Assembly (NCBI GenBank): GCA_017854795.1
Contig: JAFMHB010000001.1
Location: 80,606 to 144,605, forward strand
Source of the DNA: Candidatus Nanopelagicales bacterium
GTDB taxonomy: Bacteria; Actinomycetota; Actinomycetes; S36-B12
Length of the DNA: 64,000 nucleotides
Direction: 5' to 3'
Shown: piece by piece, positions 1,616-27,635 of the stretch
Layout: every line of letters begins with the position of its first letter
Numbering within the stretch: position 1 is the first letter of the stretch
Program-made: the position numbers and the translations under genes
The notes under the pieces: generated by a model
The model's input: only the letters and a program-made list of their open reading frames with translations
Told to the model about the DNA's origin: nothing
Databases searched by the model: none

Positions 1616-1631
1616 ACGAAATTTCACATAG

Positions 1632-1667
1632 TGAGCCCTTGATCGCCCTCGGGTGATTGAGGGCTCA
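1632..1667 (+). terminator. Possible hairpin terminator after the ferritin-like gene
   Basis: TGAGCCCT (1632-1639) pairs with AGGGCTCA (1660-1667), with further inner pairing. No clear T-run follows, so the call is weak. Confidence 0.3.
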
Positions 1668-1733
1668 ACTATTCAGTAGAGTAGGGCCGCACTAATTGGT
1701 GCACAATCATTTATCTCTTACAAGGAGACATGC

Positions 1734-3833: not shown

Positions 3834-3877
3834 GACCCTTCTGTTCAATACTTATTCAAACTTATTTGAGGATTCTT

Positions 3878-4504: not shown

Positions 4505-4508
4505 ATCA

Positions 4509-6876: not shown

Positions 6877-7800
6877 TTACTCAGTGTGCGGAGCCAAGAT
6901 TGGCATGAGCAATTGTTTGATAATTGCTGAGAGTTCAAATAGTCGATCCTTCTGGACTGCATTTTTACTCCAAGCCAAGCCGATTGTGCGAAATGGTTGA
7001 GGATCCGCGATGCTCGCTATCGCAATACCTGTACCGATTCGGGCTTCGAGTTCAACAGCGCACTCGGGGAGAAGAGTTACTCCGTTGCCGGCGGCCACCA
7101 TTTGACACACCGTGGCAAGCCCAGCTGCGCCTACATCATAGGTATTCGAAATCTTGGCGTTTGCGCAAATCTCTTCGGCTTGACCGCGGAGGCAGTGACC
7201 ATCTTCAATTAAAAGCACAGGGAATTCGTTAACGTCACCGAGGTCGATTCCGGTTGACCCAGCCCAAGGGTGGTCGATAGGAACTGCGAGGTGAAATGTG
7301 TCGGTGAAGAGTTCCAAAGTTTCAATGTCAGAGGGTGCGATGGGAAGCGCGAGAAGGGCTATGTCAATTGAGTGGTCACGCAATGAATTAAGAAGGACGT
7401 CCGTGCGTTGTTCTGAAAGTTGAAGGGAGATTGTGCTGCCAAGGCCGGCAACTATTTTGGGCAACAAATATGGGGCAAGCGTTGGGATAGCACCCAACCG
7501 CAGGACCGAGTCAACTCCGTGTGGTGCTGATGCTGTGGTGAAATCAGCGAGGGCTTCAAGTGCGCGTCGGGCGAATGGGATTAGGGATGCCCCGACCGAG
7601 GTGAGTTCGACACCTCGGGATCCTCGCTGAAGTAGGGGGAAACCAAGCGCAGCTTCCAAATCCCGTATTTGGACGCTGACCGCGGGTTGGCTGATGCCAA
7701 GCGCATTGGCGGCGGCACCAAAACTGCCCTCCTGGGTTACTGCAACGAAGGCTCGAAGTTGGGGGTAGGTCGGGTGCCATTTTCGGCGATCAAAGTCCAT
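6877..7800 (-). CDS. oxyR: LysR-family peroxide-sensing regulator OxyR
   Basis: N-terminal LysR HTH (LRAFVAVTQEGSFGAAANALGISQPAVS). Redox-Cys pair in the OxyR context IEDGHCLRGQAEEICANA. Divergent from katG. Confidence 0.85.
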   Translation of the reverse strand: MDFDRRKWHPTYPQLRAFVAVTQEGSFGAAANALGISQPAVSVQIRDLEAALGFPLLQRGSRGVELTSVGASLIPFARRALEALADFTTASAPHGVDSVLRLGAIPTLAPYLLPKIVAGLGSTISLQLSEQRTDVLLNSLRDHSIDIALLALPIAPSDIETLELFTDTFHLAVPIDHPWAGSTGIDLGDVNEFPVLLIEDGHCLRGQAEEICANAKISNTYDVGAAGLATVCQMVAAGNGVTLLPECAVELEARIGTGIAIASIADPQPFRTIGLAWSKNAVQKDRLFELSAIIKQLLMPILAPHTE

Positions 7801-10094
<2,294 letters not shown>

Positions 10095-10928: not shown

Positions 10929-11408
10929 GTGTTGTTATCAAAATCAGGTCCGACCGCACGGGGACTAATTGTGCTGGCGCTAGTAGGAACTCTAGTGACC
11001 GCATGTGGTGGGGGCGGTGACACAGCAGATACTTCACCTGATGCACCAAATACCGTCGAAGTCATAGGGACTCAACAACTCATGATCGACCAAGAGATCA
11101 CGGTTCTTGATCAAAAGTTGGTGTATCCCAAAAAGGGTGTTGCGCAAGTGTCCAGTGCAATCACGACACTAGAACCCGGTCAGGAAACCGGTTGGCAGTT
11201 GCACCCGGTCCCCACATTTGTTTATGTTCTCAGCGGCACTTACACCGTCGAGTATGAAGCCGGTGTCACCAAGGAATTTCCAGCTGGTAGTTCAACAATG
11301 CAGGCCGTGAAGACCAATTACAACGGGATCAATAAGGGTGAAGATACCGTTCAACTGCTCACCGTGTTCATGGGAGCGAAGGGAAAAAGAAATACCGTGA
11401 TGCGTTAA
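10929..11408 (+). CDS. Cupin-domain lipoprotein
   Basis: Lipobox LVTACGGGG. C-terminal cupin-like beta-barrel signature (GWQLHPVPTFVYVLSGTYTVEYE...). Confidence 0.55.
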   Translation: MLLSKSGPTARGLIVLALVGTLVTACGGGGDTADTSPDAPNTVEVIGTQQLMIDQEITVLDQKLVYPKKGVAQVSSAITTLEPGQETGWQLHPVPTFVYVLSGTYTVEYEAGVTKEFPAGSSTMQAVKTNYNGINKGEDTVQLLTVFMGAKGKRNTVMR

Positions 11409-11956
11409 GTCGGTCGGTGGTCCAAATCGGTATTGGTTGCAAATTTCCCGAGTTCAATTCGAGTGGCGTTATTTCTCGTAAGGTAATTCTTGGCTCCCAT
11501 GTCACCGGCAATCTCGTTTATTAGTGCTGACCAATGTTCACGCCCAATGACAACGGGGTGACCGATTTCGCCCTCGTAGGTTGCTTGAATGAGATCCCCT
11601 TGCGCGTCGGTAATCTCGGTGATGGCTGCGGCACTGAGTCCTATGTGATCCACGAGAGTGATGACGACTCGATCAAGTTGAGGTTCCTGGGTCAAGAGGA
11701 ATACAAGCCCGGCGCGCAAACTAGAGGACATGCCCAAAGAAAAGTCGGGATTTTCAATCACCGTTGCCTGCGGAACGTCACCAACCCATGCGCCGAGCAC
11801 AACATAAACATTGGTTAGTCCTGCTTCGCGCAGGATGCGAACACCACGATCAACGAGACGTTCACCTTCGAAAACGAATGGCGCTTTTGGCCCACCGAAT
11901 CTTTGGCCACTCCCTGCAGCAAGAACGAGACAGGCTGTATTGGCTAAATCGACCAT
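11405..11956 (-). CDS. mocA: MobA/MocA-like nucleotidyltransferase (probable molybdenum cofactor cytidylyltransferase)
   Basis: N-terminal LVLAAGSGQRFGGPK nucleotide-binding motif; 183 aa. It is embedded in the Moco/CODH cluster. Whether it uses CTP or GTP cannot be read from the sequence. Confidence 0.7.
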   Translation of the reverse strand: MVDLANTACLVLAAGSGQRFGGPKAPFVFEGERLVDRGVRILREAGLTNVYVVLGAWVGDVPQATVIENPDFSLGMSSSLRAGLVFLLTQEPQLDRVVITLVDHIGLSAAAITEITDAQGDLIQATYEGEIGHPVVIGREHWSALINEIAGDMGAKNYLTRNNATRIELGKFATNTDLDHRPT

Positions 11957-11978
11957 GCTCCACCATAATGAGCGGACT

Positions 11979-12404
11979 ATGCCAGCCGTTGTTCACCATG
12001 CCGAAGTGAGCGAGTCAGAGATCGATGCTCAGGCGATGAAAGCGCTGGTAAGTGATGCAACCACTGGAGCGGTTGTCTTATTCAGCGGAGATGTGAGAGA
12101 CCACGACCATGGGCGGAAGGTGGTTTCTTTGACCTATGAAGGTCACCCATCCGCACAGGAGGTTTTAGAAACGGTCGTCAATGACTTTGCGGCAGACTCA
12201 AACGTCACGGGAATTGCCGTGGTCCACAGGGTGGGTGAGATCCCAATTGGCCAGGCTGCATTGGTTGTAGTTGTGGCTAGTTCACACCGCGGTGATGCAT
12301 TTATAGCGGCGGGTGCTTTAGTTGACCTAGTAAAAGAGAAGCTTCCCGTGTGGAAGCACCAGTTTTTTGCCGATGGAACCGACGAGTGGGTGAATTGCGC
12401 GTGA
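11979..12404 (+). CDS. moaE: Molybdopterin synthase catalytic subunit MoaE
   Basis: GAVVLFSGDVRDHDHGRKVVSLTYEGH and PVWKHQFFADG match MoaE. Start is ATG 11979 (alternative ATG 11955). The longer track ORF from 11811 overlaps mocA. Confidence 0.85.
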   Translation: MPAVVHHAEVSESEIDAQAMKALVSDATTGAVVLFSGDVRDHDHGRKVVSLTYEGHPSAQEVLETVVNDFAADSNVTGIAVVHRVGEIPIGQAALVVVVASSHRGDAFIAAGALVDLVKEKLPVWKHQFFADGTDEWVNCA

Positions 12405-13410: not shown

Positions 13411-13653
13411 TTATCCGCCAGAAAATGGCGGCATAACATCAATGTGTTGCCCCGCACGAACATCGCAGTCGCCCGATCTTCCAAATGAATGACCGTCGAC
13501 AATGAAGGAACATTGAGGGATCACCGATGCCAAGCCAGGAATTTGTTGAATCAACTCTGCTTTAACTTCGACAAGGGATGCAGCTTCCACGGTGAGTGAA
13601 TTTTGCTGAGCTGCATGACGCGCCGCGGCATATAGATTTACCGTGACACTCAA
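13411..13653 (-). CDS. moaD: MoaD/ThiS-family sulfur-carrier protein
   Basis: 81 aa ending in the diagnostic C-terminal PFSGG. The TTG start at 13653 overlaps the upstream XdhC stop (TTGA), implying translational coupling. Confidence 0.7.
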   Translation of the reverse strand: MSVTVNLYAAARHAAQQNSLTVEAASLVEVKAELIQQIPGLASVIPQCSFIVDGHSFGRSGDCDVRAGQHIDVMPPFSGG

Positions 13654-14753
13654 CGCGGGGCACCTGGGTGAATTGGCCCGCTTGTGCGCGCGAGTGGTTG
13701 ACCACCACCGCCCCAGCGGTGTTGAACGATCTCGGCGCAAATACTGATTGCGGTTTCTTCGGGAGTGCGAGCGCCAATATCGAGTCCAATTGGTGAATGT
13801 ATGCGCGCAAGTTCAGAATCGGAAACTCCAGCCTCTCGCAACCGGGTCACTCGATCTTCGTGGGTTCGCCGCGAACCCATTGCACCTATGTAGCCAGCTT
13901 TGGTTCCTAATGCGACCTTGAGAGCGGGGACATCAAACTTTGGATCGTGTGTGAGGACAGCGATAACGGTTCGTTCATCAACTTCCTGTTGTTCAAGCCA
14001 GCGGTGTGGCCAATCAACTACAACCTGATCGGCCTCAGGAAAACGTTTGACCGTGGCAAAAATTGGGCGAGCATCGCAGACTGTCACGACATAACCGAGC
14101 ACTTTGCCAACTCTCACCAGAGCTGCTGAAAAATCGATGGCACCAAAAACAAACATTTGCGCAGGCGGGGCAAAGCTCGCAACGAATACGGTTAATCCTT
14201 CACCGAGGCGTTCACCCTCGGGTCCATATTCAATTGTTCCCGTGAGCCCTGCGGCCAACATGCCCAGTGCATCGTCTCGAACCGTGTCATTGAGGCGATC
14301 CGTCCCCAGTGAACCAGCCGTTGAATCAGGGTGAATCACTAAGTGTCGGCCAACAAAATGGGGACCCTTGATGATCGTTGCGATACAAACGGGATCACCT
14401 CGGTCAATCCGAGCGGCTACCTCAGGCAGTTCTGGCCAGGTGTCTTGATTTACTGGCTCAATAAAAACTTCCAGAATTCCGCCACAGGTCAGTCCTACCG
14501 CAAAGGCATCATCGTCACTGACCCCGTAATGTTCGAATCGGGGAGTGCCGTCTGCGATTACTTCGTTGCAGACTTCAAAGAGAGCACCTTCAACACAGCC
14601 GCCGCTAACACTGCCAACAGCTTCACCTTCGGGTGTGACCAGCATCGATGCTCCAGCAGGTCTGGGAGCGGAGCGCCAAGTTTGGACAACGGTGGCCATC
14701 GCAGCGCCACCAGATTGATGAGCGGCTAATAGTTCAGTGATTACTTCTCGCAT
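13650..14753 (-). CDS. XdhC/CoxI-family molybdoenzyme maturation factor (paralogue 1)
   Basis: 367 aa. N-terminal XdhC_CoxI domain (ATVVQTWRSAPRPAGASMLV...GSVSGGCVEG) and C-terminal Rossmann-like domain (FVFGAIDFSAAL...IGAMGSRRT). Confidence 0.85.
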   Translation of the reverse strand: MREVITELLAAHQSGGAAMATVVQTWRSAPRPAGASMLVTPEGEAVGSVSGGCVEGALFEVCNEVIADGTPRFEHYGVSDDDAFAVGLTCGGILEVFIEPVNQDTWPELPEVAARIDRGDPVCIATIIKGPHFVGRHLVIHPDSTAGSLGTDRLNDTVRDDALGMLAAGLTGTIEYGPEGERLGEGLTVFVASFAPPAQMFVFGAIDFSAALVRVGKVLGYVVTVCDARPIFATVKRFPEADQVVVDWPHRWLEQQEVDERTVIAVLTHDPKFDVPALKVALGTKAGYIGAMGSRRTHEDRVTRLREAGVSDSELARIHSPIGLDIGARTPEETAISICAEIVQHRWGGGGQPLARTSGPIHPGAPR

Positions 14754-14838
14754 CGTGATCCAAGTCTAAGTCCATTCCATGGAGTTATTCAAACAACTTG
14801 TATTGTGCCGCTGCTTGGCTATCATCCATTTATTCGCA

Positions 14839-15732
14839 ATGGGTCGATATGGGAACCAAATTCAGGAAGAGGTGATTGAGTTGTATGACATCGCTTTGAG
14901 TGTCGCAGCATGTGTTCGTTCGGGCACACGAGCGGATGTTGCCTGGATGGTGTTGCCGAATGCATCCGATCAAGCATTGGCCTTAACCCCGGGTGGAGGA
15001 AGGATTGGCCGGTTAGCATCCGGCGCATTTGATGGTTTGCTGACCGACGCGGCAGCCCGGCGCCTATCCACTGGTCGTCTGGTGGACCATGTAGTGAGTG
15101 AGATGGAAAGCCTCATTTGCGAACTCCCCGCAGGAACCCCCGTGCAGTTCCTTGTAGTTCCCGCGGAACAGTTCCCATCCCAGACTTGGTCACTTTTACT
15201 TAATCACAGTTCTTTGGTTGTTGTAGCGTCAATGTCGAAAGATATGGTTACGGCTATAAATATTGAGCCCGGCGGCGCAGATGCGCGACCGTTGGTTAAC
15301 GTGGAAATTGATTCAATTACAACGGTTCTCGCCCCAACCCCCCGATTGATAGTTGCGGGAGGCGGACCTGTCGCCGACGCGCTCGCCGCGCAGGCCGCCC
15401 TAATTAAATGGAAGGTTGTCATTGAGCCGCGCCCCGATGCGGTGGCAGGGCTGGCCGCCACCCTGTCTCCGGTCGATTCTGTGGTTGTGTTGGGTCATGA
15501 TGTCGAAGTTTCATCGGGGTGCCTGATGGCCGCTTTGGGAAGTGATGCGGGGTACATAGGGGCGCTGGGTTCGGTGGCAATGCAGAACTCCCGGGCCGAC
15601 TGGCTCGCTTATCGTGATGTGACGGATTTGTCCAGAGTACATGGACCTGCAGGTCTTGATATCAATGCTGCCACGCCCGAAGAAATTGCGGTCGCGATTG
15701 TGGCCGAAGCAATCGCGGTTCATCGGCAATAA
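14839..15732 (+). CDS. XdhC-family maturation factor (paralogue 2, divergent N-domain)
   Basis: C-terminal XdhC Rossmann-like domain (LIVAGGGPVADALA...YIGALGS...GPAGLDI). The N-domain is degenerate. Start ATG 14839 was chosen and is uncertain. Confidence 0.7.
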   Translation: MGRYGNQIQEEVIELYDIALSVAACVRSGTRADVAWMVLPNASDQALALTPGGGRIGRLASGAFDGLLTDAAARRLSTGRLVDHVVSEMESLICELPAGTPVQFLVVPAEQFPSQTWSLLLNHSSLVVVASMSKDMVTAINIEPGGADARPLVNVEIDSITTVLAPTPRLIVAGGGPVADALAAQAALIKWKVVIEPRPDAVAGLAATLSPVDSVVVLGHDVEVSSGCLMAALGSDAGYIGALGSVAMQNSRADWLAYRDVTDLSRVHGPAGLDINAATPEEIAVAIVAEAIAVHRQ

Positions 15733-16088
15733 AAAAATAATTTAGAATTTCCCTGCAAATCCTGCATCCGAGGCCTACGCTTGCAATACTTTCAACATCT
15801 GTCAGGTATCCATGGATGCAAGTGAGCTCAAGGGGTTAAATATGCCGGTTGAATCTTCAGGGCAGGAACGCGGAAACCCGCGAATGTTTGCTCTCATTGA
15901 AAACGCCCCGAAAACTGGCGCGAGCCCAACGGTGTGGGCTTTTCCACAGTTCGTTGAATTCCTGAAAGTTGCGGGCCAACCCGTTCAAGGCCCTTGGCCG
16001 CCGCACCAAGAGCCACGCCCTGATCCCGATGCAGATTCCATGCCAACAGCAGTCCCCGACAGCGGTCGCTAAGAGAGGAAAGGAACGA

Positions 16089-16961
16089 ATGTATCCGTCA
16101 CGATTTTCCTACGACGCACCAACTTCGGTCGAAGAAGTTATTGCGATACTTGACCAAAATGGCGGTGAGGCAAAAGTATTAGCAGGAGGACAGAGCCTGA
16201 TCCCGATGCTAAAACTTCGCTTCGCATCTCCAGCGCGCGTGGTCGACATAAACGGGATTCCCGGTCTGGAGTACCACCGCGTTGATCCCGACGGGACGTT
16301 GCGCATTGGAGCCTTATGTCGACACGAGGATTTGGAATTTAGCAAAATTCTTGGAAATTTCCCCACGTTGTCTCAGGCATCCTCTCTTGTGGCAGATCCA
16401 ATCGTGCGTACGCGCGGAACTTTTGTTGGTTCACTGTGCCACGCTGACCCGCAGGGTGATTGGTCCGCAACAATGATTGCCCTTGGAGGAAAAATCATTG
16501 CACAGGGACCAAATGGTCGCAGGGAAATTAAAGCACGTGACTTCGTCCTAGGGCCATTTGTCAATGCCCTCGCGTTTAATGAGGTTGCCGTAGAAGCGAT
16601 CGTTCCGCCGGCTAAGGGGAAGGCTCTCGGCGGTTACTTAAAGTTGGAGCGTCGCGTCGGTGACTTCGCCACTGCTTCGGTTGCAGTGGCCCTGGACGTT
16701 GACGGTGACATTGTGACGCGTGCCGGCTGTGCACTTGCTGGAGTCGGTGGCCGGACCATTGATGCAAATGATGCAATCTCAGTATTGGTGGGTAAGTCCT
16801 TGAATTCGGAGAGCATTAAAGAAGCGGCCGAGGCAGTTGCTGCTGCAGCGGAACCGCGCACCGATCACAGGGGATCTTCTTCATATAAGCGCCACATCGT
16901 GGAAACATTTGTCACCCGGATTCTGTCCAACATTGCCAACAGCGAGCAGAAAGCAGCCTGA
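16089..16961 (+). CDS. coxM: CO dehydrogenase medium (FAD-binding) subunit CoxM
   Basis: ATG 16089 follows GAGAGGAAAGGAA. FAD-binding motif [14 protein letters not shown] and the CO-dehydrogenase flavoprotein C-terminal domain; 290 aa. Confidence 0.9.
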
Positions 16962-16963: not shown

Positions 16964-17497
16964 ATGACTAGCCTCTATGACGAAGTACAGGCAGCGCCTG
17001 CTGCAGGAGTGGAAGTTCGCCGGATCACGGTAAATGTAAACGGAACGGATAGAACCGTTGATGTGGAACCACGACTCCTCCTCGCGCACCTGTTGCGCCA
17101 AGCATTGCAACTCACTGGAACGCACAGTGGTTGCGACACGTCCGGTTGCGGCGCATGTACGGTGTTGATGGATGGCCGTCCCGTTAAGAGCTGCACCGTA
17201 TTAGCGGTTCAGGCAAACGGTCGAGAAGTCGAAACGGTGGAAGGCCTTGCTACCGCAAGCGAATTGCACCCTATTCAAGAAGGATTCAAAGAGGAGCACG
17301 GTCTCCAATGCGGGTTCTGCACTCCCGGCATGATGCTCTCAGCCAAGGCGCTGCTGGAACGAAATCCCGATCCAACCGAGGATGAAGTTCGTTGGGCATT
17401 GTCTGGCAACCTGTGCCGCTGCACCGGCTACCAAAACATCGTTAAGTCAGTTCTTTGGGCTGCAAAGAAAATGCGCGAACAAAACCAGGAGGCATGA
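16964..17497 (+). CDS. coxS: CO dehydrogenase small ([2Fe-2S]x2) subunit CoxS
   Basis: [12 protein letters not shown] and CGFCTPGM...CRCTGY cluster motifs; 177 aa. Confidence 0.95.
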
Positions 17498-19878
17498 TGG
17501 CACCGCTCGACGAACTCAAAATTGGTGGCATGGGTGCGAGTCGCCGCCGTGTAGAAGACAACCGTTTCATCCGTGGTAAGGGTCGTTACGTTGATGACAT
17601 TGTATTGCCCGGAATGTTGCACGTGGAAATTCTGCGCAGCCCAGTGGCACACGCCCGCATTAAATCTATTGATACCAGTGCGGCTTGGGAGGTTCCCGGA
17701 GTTCGACTTGTCATGACCGGAGAGACCATGGCTGCTCGAAACCTGGCCTGGATGCCAACCCTTTCTTATGACACACAAGCAGTGCTCGCAACAGACAAGG
17801 TTCGTTTTCAGGGACAAGAGGTCGCAGCGGTTGTTGCAGACAACCCGTACATCGCCAGAGATGCACTCGACAAGATCGTGGTTGAATACGAACAGTTACC
17901 GGTTATTGTTAATCCGATTCAGGCTCAGAGCCCCGACGCACCCCTGATCCGCGACGACAAAGAGAACCAAACGTCAAATAAGATCTTCGATTGGGAGATT
18001 GGCGACAAGGAAGCAACCGACCGAGCTTTTGCGCAGGCAGATGTCGTGTCAAAGATTGATCTGCACTATCCCCGCTCTCATCCGTCCCCATTAGAAACCT
18101 GTGGCTCAATCGCGGATTATGATCGATCCAGCGGGAAATTAACCGTCTACATGACTTCGCAGGCACCTCACATTGTTCGAGCTGCGGTGGCCATGGTTGC
18201 TGAGTTACCTGAGCACATGATCCGGATTATCTCCCCCGATCTTGGTGGCGGATTTGGAAATAAAGTTCCCATCTATCCGGGATACGTTATTTCGATTCTT
18301 GCGTCAATCCTGACTGAACGCCCCGTCAAGTGGGTTGAAGACAAATCAAGTAACTTAATTTCTACCGGTTTTGGTCGCGATGTTTATCTTGAAGGAGAGT
18401 TGGCCCTTCGAAAAGATGGAAAAATCCTCGGAATGCGCATGCACACGATTTCTGATCACGGTGCCTTTTTCGCTGATGCTCAACCTACGAAGTTCAAAAT
18501 TGGTTTGATGCACTCAACATTTGCCTGCTATGACATACCTACCGGTCACCTTGTCAGTGAGGGCTACTACACGAACAAGGCTCCGGGAGGTGTGGCATAT
18601 CGATGCTCATTCAGGGTCACCGAAGCTATGTTTTTCCAAGAGCGAATGATGCATGCAGCGGCAAATGACCTCGGCATGGATCAAGCAGAGTTCCGTCGAG
18701 TGAACTTGGTCCGCGACGACATGTTCCCGTATCGCACCGCTTTTGGTTTCCTCACCGATTCCGGTCAGTACGAAAAATGCCTCGATGTTGGATTGGAGGC
18801 AATCGGGTACAGCACCTTCAAGCAGGAGCAAGAAGAAGCTCGTAAGCGCGGCAAGTTACTCGGTATTGGAATTTCAACCATGACCGAACCACTTGGTGCG
18901 GGAAATAGTCGGGAATACGACATCATCGGTATCAAGATGTTTGACTCCGCTGAATTGCGCGTGCACATGACAGGTAAGGCAATCCTGCGAACGGGCGCGA
19001 AGACTCAAGGCCAGGGTCACGAGACAACGTGGGCGCAAATCGTGGCCCACGAACTCGGAATTCCTGCCGACGACATTGTTGTGGAAGAAGGCGATACTGA
19101 CACGGCGCCGTTCGGAATGGGAACCTACGCATCTCGATCAACACCGGTCGCTGGTGCTGCCGTCGCTATGGCTTCTCGCAAGATTCGGGCTAAGGCACGC
19201 AAAATCGCAGCCCACCTTCTTGAGGTTTCTGAAGAGGATATTGAGTGGGAGTTAGGGCGGTTTTACGTTCGCGGTAATCAAGAACGCGGCGTGACCATTC
19301 AGGATTGTGCACTCGCCGCCTATAGCAATGTGCCAGACGGTCTGGAACCGGGATTAGAAAATACTTCGTACTACGATCCCCCCAACTTGACCTGGCCATT
19401 CGCAGCCTATTTCTGCAAAGTAGAAGTCGATGCACAAACTGGCGTATGGGATGTCTTGAACTTCGTTGCCGTGGACGACTGTGGTGTGCGAATCAACCCA
19501 ATGATTGTCGAAGGGCAGGTAATGGGTGGACTCACCGAGGCATACGCCATGGCGAACATGCAGTACATGACTTTCGACGAAGAAGGTAACTGCATTGGAG
19601 CTAACTACATGGACTACCTAATCCCCACTTCGTGGGAGACTCCTGGTTTTGAGTTGCATGAAGTGGTCACTCCGTGCCCGCACCATCCAATTGGGGCTAA
19701 GGGTGTTGGCGAATGCGCAACGGTGGCGGGGCCCGCCGCGTTCGTGAATGCTGTGATGAGTGCCATTGAGCACACAGGTGTTCGCAATGTTGACATGCCA
19801 CTCATGCCAAACCGTGTTTACCAGGCGCTGCAAACGGGGCAAGATGTCTCGGGAATGCCACCGGTTCTGAGCGACTAA
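17494..19878 (+). CDS. coxL: Form-I aerobic CO dehydrogenase large (Mo-Cu) subunit CoxL
   Basis: The start ATGATG overlaps the coxS stop. Active-site loop GVAYRCSFR is encoded at 18595-18615. 794 aa with molybdopterin-binding domains. Confidence 0.93.
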
Positions 19879-19879: not shown

Positions 19880-20836
19880 ATGAAGGAAACGATCAGCGGT
19901 ATGGACGTCATGGAACTTGCGGTTCAACTCGCACGCACCGGGCAGTCCTATGCGCTTGCCACAGTTGTTTGGCGTAAGCCGCCTTCGTCGGGCCAACATG
20001 GTTCAAAAGCGGTGATCACCGCAGATGGTCAACTTCACGGCTGGATCGGTGGCGCATGTGCCGAGCCGGTTGTGATCCGAGAAGCAAAAAAAGTTCTTGC
20101 TGCAGGCGAGCCCTCTTTGATCTGGCTTGGTCAAGATGCTGATTTTGCTGGAATGCATGTCCCTGAGGGGGTCCTGACAATCCCCATGTCATGCCAAAGT
20201 GAAGGGGCACTACAGCTCTATATTGAGCCTGTTCTCGTGGCACCCGAAGTGGTGATTGTTGGGCGCTCACCCATGGCCATGACCCTGTTGGAATTAGTTC
20301 GCGGCGTTGGCTGGCAGGGCGAGTTAATCGATGGGTCGGCGTTCACTGCGGAAATGGTGCATTCGGGCAGCATCGTGATTGTGGCTACACAGGGGCACGG
20401 CGATGAAGAAGTTTTGGAGACTGCCTTGGGCGAAAGCCCCGCATTTGTTGGGCTGGTGGCCTCGGCCAAACGCGGTGAAGCAGTTCAGGGTTACCTGTTG
20501 GATCGTGGCGTATCACCGGAAAAATTGTCAACCGTTCACGTCCCGGTGGGCCTTGACTTGGGACACACCACGCACCGCGAAATAGCTGTGGCGATCCTCG
20601 GCGAATTAGTCCAAAGGCGCGCAGCGGGAGAATTACGACCGGTATCGATGAATCCTTCGATCAAGACCGAACCTGAAGAGGTTATTGACCTGGTCTGCAA
20701 TATGACGGTTGCCGCAGTCCCAGAAAACAGGCCATTCGATTATGACGGAGTTACGTACTACTTCTGCGCACCCGGGTGTCGGGTCGCGTTTGAAAAAGAT
20801 CCAGAAAAATTCATCAAGCGGGAGGTCACATGTTAA
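19880..20836 (+). CDS. XdhC/CoxF-like maturation factor fused to a C-terminal YHS (TRASH-type) metal-binding domain (paralogue 3)
   Basis: N-terminal ATVVWRKPPSSGQHGSKAVI...GWIGGACAEP (XdhC_CoxI), a Rossmann-like middle, and C-terminal DLVCNMTV...FDYDGVTYYFCAPGCRVAFEKDPEKF (YHS). It starts 1 nt after the coxL stop. Confidence 0.8.
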   Translation: MKETISGMDVMELAVQLARTGQSYALATVVWRKPPSSGQHGSKAVITADGQLHGWIGGACAEPVVIREAKKVLAAGEPSLIWLGQDADFAGMHVPEGVLTIPMSCQSEGALQLYIEPVLVAPEVVIVGRSPMAMTLLELVRGVGWQGELIDGSAFTAEMVHSGSIVIVATQGHGDEEVLETALGESPAFVGLVASAKRGEAVQGYLLDRGVSPEKLSTVHVPVGLDLGHTTHREIAVAILGELVQRRAAGELRPVSMNPSIKTEPEEVIDLVCNMTVAAVPENRPFDYDGVTYYFCAPGCRVAFEKDPEKFIKREVTC

Positions 20837-21417
20837 TTACCCAAACCTTCGACATGGATCAGCCAGTCGAACAAGTGTGGAATTTCTTCGATGACATTCC
20901 CCTAGTTGCTATGTGCATTCCGGGTGCGGACCTCACTGAAAAGGTAAGTGACGACGAATACCGTGGAGATGTCACAATCTCGGCCGGTCCGGTGAAGTTG
21001 GAGTTCACCGGAGTAGTCAAAATTAAGAGCCGCGACGACGCCCGGAAGGTGATCGTGCTCGATGCTTCCGGCGCGGATAAAAAGGGTCGTGGGTCAGCTA
21101 GCGCAATGCTTGACATCTCTCTCGTTCCACTTGGTGGCCAGACGAGGGTAAATATGAGCATGGACCTTGCCATTTCAGGCGCCGCGGCTCAATACGGTCG
21201 CGGATTGGTAAAGGACTTCACCGGGGTTCTTGTAACCCAAACCGCGGGATCCATGAAAATGCGGATGACCGCGATCGCCGAGGGTCGCGATCCGATGTCA
21301 GTTGGGGGACCCAAGGCGGCCAGTGGTCTTGCAATCGGTTTCAGTGCATTTTCTATGGCTGCAAAACGGGTGTTCGCACGTTTCTTCCTGCCCTATCAAT
21401 CGGCACCTAGCCGTTAG
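20830..21417 (+). CDS. coxG: CoxG (SRPBCC-fold CODH accessory protein) with a hydrophobic C-terminal tail
   Basis: Motifs FDMDQPVEQVWNFFDDIPLVAMCIPGA and GPVKLEFTG are typical of CoxG. C-terminal LAIGFSAFSMAAKRVFARFF. Overlaps the previous gene by 7 nt. Confidence 0.85.
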   Translation: MLITQTFDMDQPVEQVWNFFDDIPLVAMCIPGADLTEKVSDDEYRGDVTISAGPVKLEFTGVVKIKSRDDARKVIVLDASGADKKGRGSASAMLDISLVPLGGQTRVNMSMDLAISGAAAQYGRGLVKDFTGVLVTQTAGSMKMRMTAIAEGRDPMSVGGPKAASGLAIGFSAFSMAAKRVFARFFLPYQSAPSR

Positions 21418-21433: not shown

Positions 21434-21688
21434 ATGAGTCTATGGATGCTGGGAAATCTTATTCTCCTGATTGTGGTGGTGCCATTGCTTGTGGCCCTGC
21501 TTAACCGGTTACTGGCAGCGCTCGAGCAAATTCGAGCTGCGGCGCAAGACACGCTTTCTGGTGGTGTTGCACTCATTGGTGCGTTGCACAACACGCCAGC
21601 GTTACTTGCAACAACAGATGATGTAATAAAAGAAGTAGCCAACGGTGCGGTGCGCTATGCCGGTCCGGTTTCTAAGTTGCTGGGATAG
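21434..21688 (+). CDS. Small bitopic membrane protein 1 of 5 (cox-linked array)
   Basis: 84 aa. RBS GGAGG lies 8 nt upstream. One N-terminal TM (LGNLILLIVVVPLLVALL) followed by an Ala/Leu/Thr-rich helical tail. 16 nt after coxG. Confidence 0.65.
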   Translation: MSLWMLGNLILLIVVVPLLVALLNRLLAALEQIRAAAQDTLSGGVALIGALHNTPALLATTDDVIKEVANGAVRYAGPVSKLLG

Positions 21689-21696
21689 GAGAAGTT

Positions 21697-21924
21697 ATGC
21701 CAATTGATGCAGTTATTACGCTCATTCTCGGGGCACTGATTATCGGTGCCGCTGCACTCGGTCTCGCGCGCGCGATAGGTCACCTTGCCGCGACTGAGAA
21801 GACCTTGGACACGCTCGACGGTGGAGTTCAGGTGATTGCTGCCCAGACCTCGACCGTTGTTCCGGTTGTCGCATCAGTTAATGCCAGTTTGGCCCCTGTC
21901 CGCGACTTTGCCAATTCGATTTAA
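21697..21924 (+). CDS. Small bitopic membrane protein 2 of 5
   Basis: 75 aa, RBS GGAG, TM ITLILGALIIGAAALGLA. The tail TLDGGVQVIAAQTST is similar to TLSGGVALIGALHNT in protein 1. 8-nt gap. Confidence 0.65.
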   Translation: MPIDAVITLILGALIIGAAALGLARAIGHLAATEKTLDTLDGGVQVIAAQTSTVVPVVASVNASLAPVRDFANSI

Positions 21925-21933
21925 GGAGGGTTC

Positions 21934-22188
21934 ATGGATTTCGCTGGACATGAAGGTTGGCTAATCGGTTACATCATTGGCCTTGTTGTCGTTCTCGTTG
22001 TTGTTGCGCTCGTTATTCCGATTCTGGTAATTGCATGGAAAATCGGTACGCAGGCTGGCAAAATTCTAACGGGGTTGGAGCAAGCTGAGACAAATACAGC
22101 TGGACTTGCCGGCCTCAACGAAACAATAACATCTGCATTGGCAGTCATCGCTGGGCTAAAACGCGGCCGTACAAGGTTAGGAGGATGA
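21934..22188 (+). CDS. Small bitopic membrane protein 3 of 5
   Basis: 84 aa, RBS AAGGAGGG, TM WLIGYIIGLVVVLVVVALVIPILVIA, tail KILTGLEQAETNTAGLAGLNETI. 9-nt gap. Confidence 0.7.
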   Translation: MDFAGHEGWLIGYIIGLVVVLVVVALVIPILVIAWKIGTQAGKILTGLEQAETNTAGLAGLNETITSALAVIAGLKRGRTRLGG

Positions 22189-22189
22189 C

Positions 22190-22465
22190 ATGGATGCCCA
22201 AACTGAACAGTTATGGATGATTGCAAACGTTCTAGGGATTGTGGTTGTTGTGGCTGTAGCCGCACTACTCACGCTCCTCGTAATATTTGTGCATCGCATT
22301 CACGTAAGGGTGGTAAAAATCAAGGCCACCCTAGAAGCAGCCAAGAACAACACCGCTGATACCGCACTCATTGGCGTCACCGCGGGTGGAGTGGAAGCAG
22401 TGTTGGCGGAGGGTCTTGAACATCATTTATTCCTCGGACGAGTACTAGACAAGGTGCGCTCATGA
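22190..22465 (+). CDS. Small bitopic membrane protein 4 of 5
   Basis: 91 aa, RBS AGGAGG, TM MIANVLGIVVVVAVAALLTLLVIFV. The tail KIKATLEAAKNNTADT parallels protein 3. 1-nt gap. Confidence 0.7.
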   Translation: MDAQTEQLWMIANVLGIVVVVAVAALLTLLVIFVHRIHVRVVKIKATLEAAKNNTADTALIGVTAGGVEAVLAEGLEHHLFLGRVLDKVRS

Positions 22466-22821
22466 GTTCATTGCAGTGGTGGTCAGTGATTGACGTTGCT
22501 CTGCTTATCGCAGGGTTAGCGGTGTACTTGTTCATCGTCGGATCGCAATTAAAGAAAGTTGCTGCGAATCTTGAAGAGTCAGCCGAATTAGTCTGGGCGA
22601 TTAAAAATGATGCTGCACTGATTGAGCCAGGCCTCACTTCAATAAACAGCACTGGTCGTGTTGTTGCTGGTGCTCTTCCCTTGCTGTACGGAATGGGGGA
22701 GGGGATAGTTGTTGGAGCAACTTTCGTGCATGAAGATCATGAAGCAGATGGTGTCAACCGTCCAGCAATGGGTACCAGGCGCTCGCGCATGATCGAGGCT
22801 ATGGGCGTCGACATAGATTAG
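22462..22821 (+). CDS. Small bitopic membrane protein 5 of 5, with a longer charged C-terminus
   Basis: 119 aa. ATGA overlap with protein 4. TM VIDVALLIAGLAVYLFIV, tail KKVAANLEESAELVWAIKND. Its stop overlaps the stop of the convergent 142-aa gene. Confidence 0.6.
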   Translation: MSSLQWWSVIDVALLIAGLAVYLFIVGSQLKKVAANLEESAELVWAIKNDAALIEPGLTSINSTGRVVAGALPLLYGMGEGIVVGATFVHEDHEADGVNRPAMGTRRSRMIEAMGVDID

Positions 22822-23246
22822 TTCGGCTTGCGACCGGTCGTGAGTGGATCGGTAACGGGGGCGTCGTAGCTTCCAATCCACTCGGCTTTCCAAGCTTTGT
22901 CAAACTTTTCTTCATTGCAACTTGGGTTGTAAACCGAAGCGAGATCGCGCGTTATCTGTTCTCTGTGCGAGCGATTGCTCCCGGGCGCATTGAGCCAGCA
23001 CACGTGCAGGTTGAACTTGCCACCAGCGCGCTCCAACCATGCGGCTGTTCTCGCGTGCTTGAAAGGAAACCCAACCTGTGAGAGGTCATCTGCATGTCCC
23101 ACGTAGATCACTGAAAATTCCTGTGAAGGCTCAGGCTTTGACTTGGTAAGGATGGCGTAAACAGCTGGCTCTTTTGGCGGAGTCCAGCCGGCAAGGGTCC
23201 GGGGGCCTTCAAAGGCGTAACCGGCCAAACTACCGAGTCGAATCAC
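22818..23246 (-). CDS. Hypothetical protein with a possible GIY-YIG-like core; last gene of the coxD-coxE operon
   Basis: 142 aa. ATGA-type 4-nt overlap with the upstream 98-aa gene. PAVYAIL...SVIYVGHADDL...HREQITRDLASVYNPSCNE resembles the GIY/YIG/R/E/N pattern. This is a by-eye assignment. Confidence 0.5.
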   Translation of the reverse strand: MIRLGSLAGYAFEGPRTLAGWTPPKEPAVYAILTKSKPEPSQEFSVIYVGHADDLSQVGFPFKHARTAAWLERAGGKFNLHVCWLNAPGSNRSHREQITRDLASVYNPSCNEEKFDKAWKAEWIGSYDAPVTDPLTTGRKPN

Positions 23247-23539
23247 TGAAGGTCACTATCCAGATCACCAAAGTCTTCGTCCTCACCGAGGGTTTCCACA
23301 CTGGTAACCGGCCACAAAGGAAGCGAAGTCTTTTCGACAGCTTGCGCGAACTGTTTTATCGCTTTATCTGCAGCTTCACTGGAGCCATCAGCTTCCACAA
23401 CTATTTGTGCGCCGTAACCCATGGTGCCGTAGCCGGAGGCGATTCCGTCCAATCCTGCGACAGCATCGGCTAATTCCACTACTTCTTCGAGAGTCACTTC
23501 GCGGTCACCCTCCGCCTGGATAGAAACACTGAATCTCAC
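23243..23539 (-). CDS. Hypothetical small acidic protein (predicted beta-alpha-beta ferredoxin-like fold), co-operonic with coxE
   Basis: 98 aa, starting 2 nt after the coxE stop. Alternating beta/alpha pattern (RFSVSIQAEG / TLEEVVELADAVAGL / GAQIVVEA / AADKAIKQFAQAVEK). Acidic tail EDEDFGDLDSDLQ. Confidence 0.55.
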   Translation of the reverse strand: MRFSVSIQAEGDREVTLEEVVELADAVAGLDGIASGYGTMGYGAQIVVEADGSSEAADKAIKQFAQAVEKTSLPLWPVTSVETLGEDEDFGDLDSDLQ

Positions 23540-23541: not shown

Positions 23542-24675
23542 TTATCTCACTTTCGAGAGTCGATTGGCTAGGTGCTCAAGGCTAGCAAGATTGTGACCTG
23601 AGTACACCTCGTCTATATAAGGTTCAGCGACAATCATGCCAAGTGATGCAGGTACATAATCCACGACATCGCCCTTATGCGGGTTGACCCAAATAACTCG
23701 GTATGCAATTCGCGAGAGGCTTTCCATAGCTTGCGATAGTGCCGCCGGTTCACCCCGGTCAAGTCCGTCAGAGCAAATAACAACAACGGCTCCACGGCCT
23801 AGTCGTGACCGGCGGGCGTCTTTGGTAAATTCCTTAATCGAGTCGCCGATTCGGGTGCCACCGTCCCAGTCGAATACCGATTCGCCAGCCAGACGCATAG
23901 CCTCATCAGGGTTACGGCGATCTAGGGATCGTGTGATGCGGGTGAGACGGGTTCCAAAACAAAAGACATCAACTTTGGCATTTGCTCGCCGCGCACAATA
24001 AGCAAACTGCAGGAGGTTGCGGGAGTAGTCCGCCATCGAGCCCGAAACGTCAAGGATCAGTACTAATGGACGTAACTTGTTCTTTCGTTTTTTGTAAGCA
24101 AGGTCGCGGGGCTCGCCAAGTTTGCGCATGCTCTCGCGCACCATGCGTCGAAGGTCGAGTCGGGCGGCCTTACGACTCCGAGTCGTCCGGTGAGTTCGGC
24201 GCACAGGCGGGGTAACGCGCATACGAGAGATCAGTTTTCGCACCTGGCGAATTTCGTCCTCGGAGCACTCGGAAAAAGCCTTATAACGATAAACGTCGGA
24301 GGTGCTCGCTAGGTAACCGAGTTTGACTTCATCGGGGCTGATATCACCGGGAACACCTTCTTCGGTGTTCGGAATCTCGAGGGTGGCGCCAACGGTAGAT
24401 GACGATCGAAGAGTGAGCTTTCGGGCGTCTTTGTTGGCTTCCTCGATGTCCAGAAAAAATAGTTTGAAGACCGCGTTGTAGATAGGGACTTGGTCTTGGC
24501 GCCGGATCATCGTGGCCCTACCAGCCCAGTAAACGTCCATCAGGTCGCTGACGTCGAGTTGGGAAACTCCTGAGCAGAAGGTCAATATGTCGTCTGAACC
24601 AATCGATATCCCCGCATGTCTGAGTGTCTGACCGAACTCCACGAGAAGTTCGTCGAACCCGCTAAGAGATGACAT
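23542..24675 (-). CDS. coxE: CoxE (vWA-domain CODH maturation protein)
   Basis: Start ATG 24675 (MSSLSGFDELLVEFGQTLRHAGI...) overlaps the coxD end by 14 nt. CoxE-type N-domain, and vWA MIDAS-like LVLILDVSGSM. Confidence 0.85.
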   Translation of the reverse strand: MSSLSGFDELLVEFGQTLRHAGISIGSDDILTFCSGVSQLDVSDLMDVYWAGRATMIRRQDQVPIYNAVFKLFFLDIEEANKDARKLTLRSSSTVGATLEIPNTEEGVPGDISPDEVKLGYLASTSDVYRYKAFSECSEDEIRQVRKLISRMRVTPPVRRTHRTTRSRKAARLDLRRMVRESMRKLGEPRDLAYKKRKNKLRPLVLILDVSGSMADYSRNLLQFAYCARRANAKVDVFCFGTRLTRITRSLDRRNPDEAMRLAGESVFDWDGGTRIGDSIKEFTKDARRSRLGRGAVVVICSDGLDRGEPAALSQAMESLSRIAYRVIWVNPHKGDVVDYVPASLGMIVAEPYIDEVYSGHNLASLEHLANRLSKVR

Positions 24676-25522
24676 CCTGAATACTTCGAGAGGCAAACTC
24701 CAAATCATCGCGATCCTTGACGACAGCACCGAGGGTATCAATTGCGACTTCAGCGGTAAGAGTTTTTGCACCTAGCGCGCTGACGCTTTCCGCCCAGTCA
24801 ATAGTTTCTGCTACGCCGGGAAGTTTCTCGAGATCCATCGCGCGAAGTCGATTGACAGCATGGACAACCTGATTCGCGAGAGCTGGGCCTATTTCTGGGA
24901 GTCTCGACCTAACAATCTCGATTTCGCGTTCGCTTTCGGGGAAGCCGATCCAGGTGTAAAGGCAACGGCGTTTGAGAGCGTCGTGCAGTTCCCGAGTTCG
25001 GTTCGAAGTAAGGATGACAATAGGCCGGGATTGCGCACTAATCGTTCCCACCTCGGGGATGGTAACTTGGAAATCACCAAGTAGTTCAAGAAGGAATGCT
25101 TCAAATTCGTCATCGGCTCGGTCGATTTCATCAATCAAGAGAACACATTGATCCCCTGCTCGAACGGCCTTGAGTAGCGGCCGCTCGAGCAGGAACCGCG
25201 GACCGAAAAGTTGTTCGTCAGAGGCGTCATCCGTGGCTAGGGAACGCACGAACAGCATTTGGCGGGCGTAGTCCCATTCGTACAGGGCTTGATGCATATC
25301 GATGCCCTCATAGCACTGCAGTCGAATTAAATCTCGGCCCAGCATCGTGGAAACAGTGCGAGCGAGTTCCGTCTTGCCAACGCCTACTTCGCCCTCAAGG
25401 AGCAAAGGTTTACCGAGTTTGAGTGACAGTAGTAGAGATGTCGTTAGACCACGATCGGCGATATAACCACGATCTGCCAGATCGCTGGTGAGCTGCGAAA
25501 CTGTTAGTTCTTCGAACGCCAT
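24662..25522 (-). CDS. coxD: CoxD (MoxR-class AAA+ ATPase for CODH active-site maturation)
   Basis: Walker A LLEGEVGVGKT, Walker B VLLIDEIDRA. 286 aa, MoxR-like, directly upstream of coxE. Confidence 0.9.
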   Translation of the reverse strand: MAFEELTVSQLTSDLADRGYIADRGLTTSLLLSLKLGKPLLLEGEVGVGKTELARTVSTMLGRDLIRLQCYEGIDMHQALYEWDYARQMLFVRSLATDDASDEQLFGPRFLLERPLLKAVRAGDQCVLLIDEIDRADDEFEAFLLELLGDFQVTIPEVGTISAQSRPIVILTSNRTRELHDALKRRCLYTWIGFPESEREIEIVRSRLPEIGPALANQVVHAVNRLRAMDLEKLPGVAETIDWAESVSALGAKTLTAEVAIDTLGAVVKDRDDLEFASRSIQDVIS

Positions 25523-25941: not shown

Positions 25942-27159
25942 ATGCTTAGCGTTGCGGAATACCTCGACCTTGTCCTTGACAGCGTCAGTGAACTTCCCGC
26001 GATGGAATTGCCCATCTCAGACGTGAATGGATGCGTACTTGCCCAAGATATTTATGCACGTTGGCCACTCCCTTCCTTCGATAACTCGTCAATGGACGGT
26101 TACGCGGTAATTGCCGCAGATTTGGCACATGCGAGTGAGAGTGTGCCGATTTCGCTACCCGTGATTGACGACATCCCTGCTGGGTTCAAGTCATTGGAAA
26201 CTTTGCAAAGTGGTCAGGCCATCCGAATTATGACCGGCGCCCCGATGCCAGCGGGCGCGGACAGCGTGATTCGTGTTGAGGACACTGATGGTGGCAGCGG
26301 GGTTGTCCGGATTCAGGTACCAATTGAGGTGGGAAGTTGTGTGCGTCGTGAAGGTGAAGACGTGCAGGCGGGTGACCTAGTGCTGACAAAGGGTACGTTC
26401 ATCGGTCCGCGTCAGATTGCTTTGATCGCGGCGGTGGGACACGGTGTCATTTCCGTGATCCCTAAGCCACGGGTTGCGGTTCTTGCGACAGGAAGTGAAC
26501 TCGTTGAACCTGGGACCGAGCTCAAGTACGGTTTGATTTCGGATTCAAATAGTTTCCTCATTACTGCAATTGCTAATGACAGTGGAGCCACCGCATACAG
26601 GCTTCCACCTGTACAAGATGACGAAGACGCGTTAATTGAGATCCTGCAGGACCAAGTGCACCGAGCTGACCTCATCATCACAACCGGGGGAGTGAGTATG
26701 GGTGCCTACGATCCCGTTAAATCTGCATTTCTGAAGCTGGGAACGGCCCAGTTTCACAAAGTGGCAATGCAACCGGGAATGCCACAAGGTTTCGGCAGTG
26801 TTGGTGAGCCTGCGATCCCGATCATCACACTTCCGGGTAATCCGGTGAGCGCTTATGTTTCCTTCGAGGTGTTCATTCGCCCGGCAATTCGCAAGATGCG
26901 GGGCTTGAAGCAGTTGGAGCGCCCGCATCGGTCGGCAACGTTGAAGGGTGAATTGCAATCACCAATCAACAAGGTGCAGTTTGCTCGAGGTCGCTTTATG
27001 GCCGAGGAGCAGGTTGAACTTGTGGGTACTGGACAGGGATCACATGTTCTTGGTGGACTCGCGCAAGCAGATGCACTCATTGTGATTCCGGTGGGTGTTG
27101 ACAGTATTACCAATGGAGAGCAGGTTCAGGTAATTGATGTGAGAGGTGATTTGACATGA
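25942..27159 (+). CDS. moeA: Molybdopterin molybdotransferase MoeA
   Basis: 405 aa. Motifs SFDNSSMDGYAV, ITTGGVSMGAYD and TLPGNPVSAYVSFEVF. Confidence 0.93.
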   Translation: MLSVAEYLDLVLDSVSELPAMELPISDVNGCVLAQDIYARWPLPSFDNSSMDGYAVIAADLAHASESVPISLPVIDDIPAGFKSLETLQSGQAIRIMTGAPMPAGADSVIRVEDTDGGSGVVRIQVPIEVGSCVRREGEDVQAGDLVLTKGTFIGPRQIALIAAVGHGVISVIPKPRVAVLATGSELVEPGTELKYGLISDSNSFLITAIANDSGATAYRLPPVQDDEDALIEILQDQVHRADLIITTGGVSMGAYDPVKSAFLKLGTAQFHKVAMQPGMPQGFGSVGEPAIPIITLPGNPVSAYVSFEVFIRPAIRKMRGLKQLERPHRSATLKGELQSPINKVQFARGRFMAEEQVELVGTGQGSHVLGGLAQADALIVIPVGVDSITNGEQVQVIDVRGDLT

Positions 27160-27635
27160 GCGCATTCCCGCATCTCAATGATCAAGGTGATGCCCACATG
27201 GTGGATGTGACCGCTAAGAGTGTCACCGAAAGATCGGCTACTGCTCGTTCTCGGGTTTCTATGAGCGATGAAGTTGTTAGTCGTTTGCGCGCAGGGGATA
27301 TGCCGAAAGGTGATGCATTTGCCGTAGCACGTATTGCTGCGATCTCGGCATCAAAAAAGACGAGTGAACTGATTCCGTTATGTCATCCGCTGGCAATCCA
27401 CGGTGTCAACGTTGATTTGTCACTTGATACAACGGGAGTCGAGATCACCGTGACGGTAAAGACCGCTGATCGGACCGGAGTTGAAATGGAGGCATTGACG
27501 GCCGCATCCGTTGGAGCCCTGGCACTCATCGATATGGTCAAAGGCCTTGATCGGCTTGCTCGTATTGAATACGTCGAGTTGTTGGAAAAAAAGGGTGGGC
27601 GCTCAGGCCATTGGATTCGCAGTGAAAATGAGTGA
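27156..27635 (+). CDS. moaC: Cyclic pyranopterin monophosphate synthase MoaC
   Basis: Motifs MVDVTAKSVTERSA, LIPLCHPL, DRTGVEMEALTA. 4-nt overlap with moeA. Confidence 0.95.
   Translation: MSAFPHLNDQGDAHMVDVTAKSVTERSATARSRVSMSDEVVSRLRAGDMPKGDAFAVARIAAISASKKTSELIPLCHPLAIHGVNVDLSLDTTGVEITVTVKTADRTGVEMEALTAASVGALALIDMVKGLDRLARIEYVELLEKKGGRSGHWIRSENE

Follow-up and report, generated by a model that had tools for sequence, protein, structure and literature searches.

A coxF gene with a C-terminal YHS module behind coxL

The 64,000-nucleotide stretch of contig JAFMHB010000001.1 from a Candidatus Nanopelagicales bacterium that was analysed here (hereafter the window) carries a complete island for a form-I (Mo-Cu) aerobic carbon monoxide dehydrogenase (CODH). 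The subject of this report is the gene that directly follows coxL in this island, a coxF-type maturation gene whose product ends in a YHS module. Aerobic CODH, into whose Mo-S-Cu site copper has to be inserted, drives atmospheric CO uptake by soil and aquatic bacteria. The gene encodes 318 residues; its ATG at 19880 lies 1 nt behind the TAA stop codon of coxL, which ends at 19878, and its 3' end overlaps the start of coxG at 20830 (ACATGTTAA). An earlier examination of the letters without database searches (the sequence-only reading) had described the product as an XdhC_CoxI N-domain and a Rossmann-like domain fused to a YHS/TRASH tail, starting 1 nt after the stop codon of a form-I coxL. All parts of this description hold: the coordinates agree, a Pfam scan returned the three domains above their curated thresholds (Table 1), and the upstream open reading frame (ORF) of 807 codons (17455 to 19878) passes TIGR02416, the family of aerobic CODH large subunits, with 1123 bits against a cut-off of 991 and contains the form-I active-site signature VAYRCSFR. 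The actual start of coxL is probably the ATG at ~17494-17497, overlapping the stop codon of coxS. The YHS match covers profile positions 1-45 of 47 (PF04945, TRASH clan), and the tail, DLVCNMTVAAVPENRPFDYDGVTYYFCAPGCRVAFEKDPEKF, corresponds to residues 270-311 of the protein.

When compared by BLASTP to the cox cluster of Oligotropha (Afipia) carboxidovorans pHCG3, the protein aligned to CoxF with 34% identity over 266 residues (E 1e-35 to 3e-43) and to CoxI with 21% identity (E 1e-7), and the other two XdhC paralogues of the window matched CoxI better than CoxF. Because of the higher identity to CoxF and the closer relation of the paralogues to CoxI, we assign the gene on sequence grounds as the orthologue of Oligotropha coxF and not of coxI. 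In a neighbour-joining (NJ) tree of the XdhC body, the window protein likewise falls in the CoxF clade, and it stays below the equivalog cut-offs of both TIGR02964 (XdhC proper; 31.4 vs 161.6 bits) and NF045664 (XdhC_rel_AOR; 105.3 vs 350 bits). Relatives of the XdhC body in the PDB are 2WE7/2WE8 and 3ON5.

In Oligotropha, coxF::km and coxE::km mutants produce a CODH that lacks Cu and contains sulfurated Mo (PMC4240915); since the mutant enzyme is sulfurated yet Cu-free, CoxF acts at the copper step in this organism. Oligotropha CoxF was proposed to supply copper via a putative M107CPSHGTM site together with a speculative phytase activity (PMC4240915). Cys105 of the window protein aligns with Cys108 of this motif, and both Cys60 and Cys105 are invariant in all CoxF forms examined, long and short. 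The two proteins thus have in common the XdhC_CoxI plus XdhC_C body, the equivalents of these two cysteines and the location within a form-I cox cluster that also contains coxD, coxE and coxG. In contrast to the window protein, CoxF of strain OM5 has only 280 residues and carries neither a YHS nor any other metal-binding tail, and the gene order there is coxMSL-D-E-F-G as opposed to coxMSL-F-G with divergent coxE-coxD in the window. The short CoxF bodies, that of Oligotropha among them, contain on average ~1 more Cys and ~2 more Met than the long ones, and M111 is present in 95% of them versus Leu in the long forms. This signal is weak, and a gain of ligands in the body as compensation for the missing tail is suggestive, not decisive.

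The fusion is genuine

An identical product of 318 residues was predicted from 11 contigs, which derive from separate ENA and JGI samples, and of the 120 nearest clusters at 90% identity, 119 contain all three Pfam domains. Since the query itself holds a YHS module, this cluster count and the count of representatives that follows, as well as the one-genome-per-species scan described below, are skewed toward YHS-bearers. Using a custom hidden Markov model (HMM) built from the alignment, the tail was detected in 124 of the top 150 representatives at 50% identity, and most of the 26 tail-negative ones are truncated or visibly frameshifted. A count of YHS tails by regular expression (73/150) was an undercount and is superseded by the HMM count.

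An assembly error or a frameshift could, in principle, have fused two genes, and in a few loci from long-read metagenome-assembled genomes (L054, L063 and L067) the tail is indeed a separate ORF, exactly where an indel would place it. However, the recurrence of the same ORF on 11 independent contigs and the conservation of the three-domain architecture from 100% down to ~32% identity, across phyla and domains of life, rule out this explanation for practical purposes, and the fusion proposed by the sequence-only reading stands. The apparent stand-alone YHS genes beside an unfused coxF at the three loci were rejected as indel-split fusions, located at the fusion's own C-terminus. In Oligotropha, a region of 26 kb surrounding the cox cluster contains no YHS ORF.

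Invariant residues and predicted structure of the tail

In 23 full-length and 22 tail sequences with identities of 32-85%, the putative ligands D270, C273, C296 and C300 as well as M275 are invariant. The same set of D, C, C and C has been proposed to bind the metal in the YHS domain of the M. phlei adenylyl cyclase, a domain that mediates copper-specific activation of the cyclase (PMC4626032). This cyclase and the P1B-type Cu-ATPases with an N-terminal YHS resemble the window protein in the Pfam family, the D-x2-C...C-x3-C pattern and the short linker, and the cyclase also in the C-terminal position of the fusion. They differ in the partner, which is a signalling enzyme or a transporter versus a maturation factor, and in the role, which for the window protein would be that of a donor and not of a sensor.

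The full-length AlphaFold2 (AF2) model has a predicted local distance difference test score (pLDDT) of 80-95 for the XdhC body and below 55 for the linker (residues 250-270), whereas the tail modelled alone from the 22-sequence alignment reaches a pLDDT of 87. The best Foldseek matches of the tail in the PDB are the YHS-like modules of the ToMO, T4mo, PH and sMMO hydroxylases, the TRASH domain of ZMYM5 and L24e, with TMq values of 0.5-0.66 and weak E-values (at least 0.02), as expected for a query of 58 residues. The predicted structure of the tail is that of a TRASH-like treble-clef module.

Distribution of the fusion and linkage to form-I coxL

In the one-genome-per-species scan, the tail was present at all 80 loci, which span several classes of Actinomycetota, Chloroflexota, Acidobacteriota and other groups. 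In 52 of the 58 fusion loci that are informative, i.e. for which at least 2.6 kb of upstream sequence is available, a form-I coxL (AYxCSFR) precedes the fusion gene on the same strand at a distance of at most 6 kb; in 35 of these 52 it is directly adjacent. The fusion is closely coupled to coxL loci of form I, the Cu-containing type. Three fusion loci (L036, L048 and L055) are orphans without a nearby coxL; an alternative partner was sought there and none was evident, save an unrelated Mo hydroxylase 4 kb off in L048.

A second, less biased sample consisted of loci picked by CoxL similarity from annotated plasmids and chromids. In this sample, YHS-bearing CoxF proteins were found in Thermomicrobium roseum, the haloarchaeon Natronorubrum bangense, Deinococcus sp. 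AJ005 (as a variant), Caballeronia and Paraburkholderia. Short CoxF proteins were found in six of six Alphaproteobacteria (Oligotropha, Bradyrhizobium, Rhizobium, Aestuarium, Marivivens and Pseudosulfitobacter), and the form-I locus of Nonomuraea (L083) encodes a CoxF body without the YHS tail. Among the nearest clusters of Oligotropha CoxF, the domain is absent from 120 of 120. Taken together, fusions occur in Actinomycetota, Chloroflexota, Acidobacteriota, Deinococcus, haloarchaea and Betaproteobacteria. Within these loci, the module is confined to the CoxF paralogue and absent from all CoxI-type XdhC paralogues. To judge from these comparisons, the YHS fusion is the common form of CoxF outside Alphaproteobacteria and not a peculiarity of one lineage, and the alphaproteobacterial clade, which includes the experimentally studied member, is the only one that uniformly lacks the domain. 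The restriction of the fusion to the lineage of the window, as worded in the sequence-only reading, was therefore too narrow.

Several loci differ in composition from the window. Many loci of Streptosporangiaceae and other Actinomycetota (L010, L013, L016, L019, L024, L027, L030, L032, L060 and L063) contain a second, divergent form-I coxL, whose product is 54-58% identical to the CoxL of the window, ~7 kb upstream and mostly on the opposite strand. The Nonomuraea locus L083 is of this second coxL type and has the CoxF without YHS, and one genome may hold two form-I systems with different CoxF types. The acidobacterial contig L058 encodes a YHS-fused CoxF plus a tail-less CoxF-like protein with 237 bits on the body HMM (1037-1888, minus strand, and 8646-9590, plus strand). 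In L002 (T. roseum), L035, L040, L044, L049, L051, L053, L059 and L065, coxM-S-L-coxF(YHS) lacks coxD, coxE and coxG within the 10 kb covered; the AAA+/VWA pair is either encoded elsewhere or unneeded in these organisms.

Exchange of YHS for HMA and other tails

The CoxF homologue P0240 of Rhodothermus marinus (AP019797.1) ends not in YHS but in an HMA domain (PF00403, 40.9 bits) that contains the motif GMSCAHC. Its gene (L087:8001-9038) takes the place of coxF in a coxM-S-L-G-D-E-F-mocA cluster whose CoxL contains VAYRCSFR. A search with P0240 yielded 39 XdhC plus HMA clusters (P0240, P0391-P0424, P0434, P0440, P0491 and P0496), all of which retain M-x-C-x-x-C. The best matches to P0240 that lack HMA share 58-60% identity in the body and carry YHS. 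The R. marinus protein resembles the window protein in its body (42% identity), its form-I cox context and the small metal-binding domain at the same C-terminal position behind a linker of ~20 residues, and differs in the domain itself, a ferredoxin-like HMA with MxCxxC versus the treble-clef YHS. HMA is the canonical Cu(I) chaperone fold and is unrelated to the YHS fold, and the two modules are interchangeable at one position of one scaffold. We regard this exchange as the strongest argument available for copper handling by the tail. Other tails are rare, short and Cys/His-rich (...CAAC..., ...GCCSG and ...GHSCH), and one member has an additional linker rich in CC.

Some fusions are more elaborate or diverge in the tail. 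In P0253, a CoxF-YHS protein of 547 residues, an insert of ~230 residues between body and tail contains the CC/CH motifs PCCATED, SCCAKGD, ACHATED and SCCDQ, which may provide extra metal-binding capacity. P0206, P0235 and P0238 (533-565 residues) are tri-fusions of a MocA/MobA-like nucleotidyltransferase, XdhC and YHS, by which the CoxF-type body is physically tied to the step of molybdopterin cytosine dinucleotide synthesis. In the tail of Deinococcus sp. AJ005 (L085:12634-13695; also P0189), SPVDGEEI or SGSEI stands in place of DPVCGM, and YYFTC..C in place of YYFC..C; with the first Cys and the Met absent, the metal site may be of another kind or degenerate.

Possible function of the YHS tail

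Based on the sequence comparisons, we consider it rather probable that the YHS tail acts as a swinging arm which accepts Cu(I) and supplies it to the CoxF body or to the Mo-SH site of apo-CODH. The module would take over Cu(I) from a chaperone or draw it from the cytosolic pool and, being tethered, would swing and pass the copper on by thiolate ligand exchange. The recipient might be the site formed by the conserved Cys60 and Cys105 (plus Met103) of the CoxF body or, with CoxF docked on CoxL, directly the Mo-SH of apo-CODH; CoxD (AAA+) and CoxE (VWA) would help in the transfer. The copper-acceptor idea of the sequence-only reading is in this respect supported by the linkage to form-I coxL, the invariant D-x2-C...C-x3-C and the HMA exchange, but the module does not represent the sole copper route, as Oligotropha, other Alphaproteobacteria and Nonomuraea lack the domain. 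For a sulfide acceptor, the other option mentioned there, we found no specific support.

Several observations weigh against a role of the tail as copper acceptor. The module is missing from every alphaproteobacterial CoxF examined, i.e. from all 120 clusters and all six loci, and from the Nonomuraea locus. A Cu-containing CODH is known or expected from these tail-less organisms; the module is hence not essential, and its dispensability in some form-I systems means that YHS is not the only route for copper. Zn/Cd binding by TRASH domains such as L24e is structural. The solved YHS-like modules of diiron monooxygenases are not linked to copper, and toluene-4-monooxygenase binds no metal at this site (PMC4626032). 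In addition, the tail of the Deinococcus variant has neither the first Cys nor the Met, the MocA-XdhC-YHS tri-fusions connect the protein to the handling of the molybdenum cofactor (Moco) too, and in the full-length AF2 model no confident placement of the YHS module near C60/C105 was obtained (predicted template modelling score 0.56).

Some of these points would agree with a structural zinc ribbon that mediates protein contacts, either of CoxF with CoxL, CoxE or CoxD or between CoxF monomers, and never carries copper. The nearest solved relatives by sequence and fold are the buried YHS-like modules of diiron monooxygenase alpha subunits and the TRASH/L24e zinc ribbons, TRASH is classed as a treble-clef zinc finger (PMC4999995), and Alphaproteobacteria do without the module. 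A pure docking role, however, would not predict the replacement of the module by an HMA with intact MxCxxC in 39 clusters; moreover, structural Zn(Cys)4 sites do not typically have an invariant Met next to the first Cys or an Asp where a fourth Cys would be expected, and the long tether, which is predicted to be disordered, suits a mobile carrier better than a fixed interface. We therefore hold the zinc ribbon to be unlikely. HMA domains of P1B-ATPases act mainly as regulators, as is generally known, and the YHS tail could similarly be a copper sensor that gates the activity of CoxF or its engagement with CODH without donating the metal. To our knowledge, CoxF has no catalytic activity that could be switched, and the strict placement of the gene in a maturation operon fits delivery at least equally well. 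In favor of the sensor, the sole YHS domain studied biochemically, the C-terminal fusion of the M. phlei adenylyl cyclase, is a copper-specific allosteric switch (PMC4626032). On balance, a sensor in place of a donor seems quite improbable; the two roles are not mutually exclusive and can coexist.

The Cys-rich tail could also handle sulfur, as a persulfide relay for the Mo=S or mu-S ligand, or molybdenum/Moco instead of copper. Moco is bound by XdhC proteins, which shield its sulfido ligand (PMC2997495; PMC4240915), the tri-fusions with a MocA-like domain exist, and sulfide had been raised as an option before. In Oligotropha, however, sulfuration needs CoxD and proceeds without CoxF (PMC4240915). 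The HMA exchange points to a metal cation, and the CoxI-type XdhC paralogues never bear the tail. Since we also know of no sulfur-relay role for YHS, TRASH or HMA, we regard such a function as very improbable.

Copper delivery by a tethered module would have parallels in other systems. In the copper chaperone CCS, a target-docking domain is linked to a small Cu(I)-binding HMA domain, and SOD1 is loaded as a pre-folded apo-enzyme; the parallel to the mechanism proposed for CoxF would be a functional analogy alone, as CCS consists of SOD-like and HMA domains and is not homologous to CoxF. NosL is a Cu chaperone in the maturation of N2O reductase. It is built from TRASH-like treble clefs (PMC4999995) and, like the CoxF tail, represents a TRASH-derived fold in the assembly of a copper-sulfur centre, but it is a stand-alone periplasmic lipoprotein with duplicated, degenerate TRASH units and without an XdhC body. 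XdhC of Rhodobacter capsulatus, the chaperone for Moco sulfuration and insertion in xanthine dehydrogenase, shares the two-domain XdhC fold family and the enzyme-specific maturation of a Mo hydroxylase (PMC2997495), whereas the window protein partners a Cu-containing CODH and has the extra metal-binding domain.

Evolution and implications

In the NJ tree of the CoxF body, a rough tree rooted with CoxI-type XdhCs and without support values, the short alphaproteobacterial clade is sister to a large, mostly YHS-bearing clade in which HMA, Cys-rich and tail-less forms are nested. This sister placement is compatible with a gain of the tail as well as with its loss after the root of CoxF. The architecture as such is already contained in databases, both in precomputed Pfam strings and in members named 'YHS domain-containing protein' at NCBI. 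A full-text literature search that paired CoxF, XdhC or CODH with YHS, TRASH or HMA found no paper, with most subscription journals outside its coverage, so that an earlier mention is possible.

The chances seem to us evenly divided that, in general, CoxF is a dedicated Cu(I) insertase that outside Alphaproteobacteria usually comes equipped with a copper-binding domain on a tether (YHS in haloarchaea and most phyla, HMA in Rhodothermus and its relatives, short Cys/His tails elsewhere), with the alphaproteobacterial form being atypical. If so, the sole existing model, which was derived from Oligotropha knockouts and weak motifs (the putative MCPSHGTM copper site and a 'phytase' motif) and includes a speculative Cu-phytate/phytase step, would rest on an atypical, tail-less CoxF, and interchangeable metal modules on one scaffold would define the routing of copper to the Mo-S-Cu centre. 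Better experimental systems than Oligotropha would then be available, e.g. T. roseum, Paraburkholderia/Caballeronia or haloarchaea, and some caution is indicated in that Oligotropha may not represent the common mechanism. The results provide the first solid comparative support for the hypothesis of CoxF as copper donor and do not overturn the current view; with D270, C273, M275, C296, C300, C60 and C105, they name concrete residues by which this hypothesis becomes testable.

Genes and features of the CODH island

The features of the gene and of the surrounding island are listed in Table 1. The genes coxE and coxD are located 2.7-4.7 kb downstream of coxF on the opposite strand, and genes for Moco synthesis flank the cox genes on both sides.

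Table 1 Features of the coxF gene and of the CODH island in the window.
Feature	Position	Strand	Basis or remark
MobA/MocA-like nucleotidyltransferase	11405-11956	-	Moco gene upstream
moaE	11811-12404	+	Moco gene upstream
moaA	12350-13408	+	Moco gene upstream
CoxI-like XdhC paralogue, no metal-binding tail	13650-14753	-	Pfam, BLASTP
XdhC_C-only paralogue, no metal-binding tail	14779-15732	+	Pfam, BLASTP
coxM, FAD subunit	15969-16961	+	Pfam/NCBIfam
coxS, [2Fe-2S] subunit	16964-17497	+	Pfam/NCBIfam
coxL, large subunit of form-I Mo-Cu CODH	17455-19878	+	TIGR02416, VAYRCSFR
coxF orthologue, XdhC_CoxI + XdhC_C + linker + YHS	19880-20836	+	318 aa, ATG start
XdhC_CoxI N-domain, residues 18-80	19931-20119	+	Pfam 62.6 bits, cut-off 24.3
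Invariant Cys60 (GGAC), inside XdhC_CoxI domain	20057-20059	+	Alignment
Invariant Cys105, motif M-S-C-Q-S-E-G	20192-20194	+	Alignment with Oligotropha CoxF Cys108
XdhC_C Rossmann-like domain, residues 124-243	20249-20608	+	Pfam 77 bits, cut-off 29.7; AF2 pLDDT 85-95
Variable linker, ~18-20 residues, residues 250-267	20627-20680	+	AF2 pLDDT <55, length-variable alignment columns; predicted disordered
YHS/TRASH module, residues 268-313	20681-20818	+	Pfam 38.8 bits, cut-off 30.3, E 9.4e-10
YHS invariant D270	20687-20689	+	Alignments
YHS invariant C273	20696-20698	+	Alignments
YHS invariant M275	20702-20704	+	Alignments
YHS invariant C296	20765-20767	+	Alignments
YHS invariant C300	20777-20779	+	Alignments
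Terminal Cys318 codon, within coxG start overlap ACA-TGT-TAA	20831-20833	+	
coxG (SRPBCC/COXG)	20830-21417	+	Pfam
coxE (VWA_CoxE)	23542-24771	-	Pfam
coxD (MoxR-type AAA+ ATPase)	24662-25522	-	Pfam
moeA	25942-27159	+	Moco gene downstream
moaC	27156-27635	+	Moco gene downstream

At the 3' end of coxF (20828-20836), the terminal Cys (...EVTC*) is kept in 114 of 115 close relatives and also at loci with 50-62% identity. Its codon is always part of an NNA-TGY-TRA overlap that holds the ATG of coxG (in the window and at the CoxF ends in L003-L027), and what is conserved here may be translational coupling and not a fifth ligand. Upstream of the cox island (3300-5708), an ORF of 177 residues with no assigned function, a PCuAC copper chaperone (3800-4504) and a DyP-type peroxidase (4455-5708) are encoded, followed at 6877-10094 by a LysR regulator and a catalase-peroxidase (7896-10094). 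The PCuAC, peroxidase and catalase-peroxidase genes are related to copper and peroxide, with no demonstrated connection to cox. Between coxG and coxE (21434-23539), six small ORFs of 84-142 residues on both strands have no Pfam match; the one of 84 residues (21434-21688) also appears among the genes called on contigs L089-L092, which are independent.

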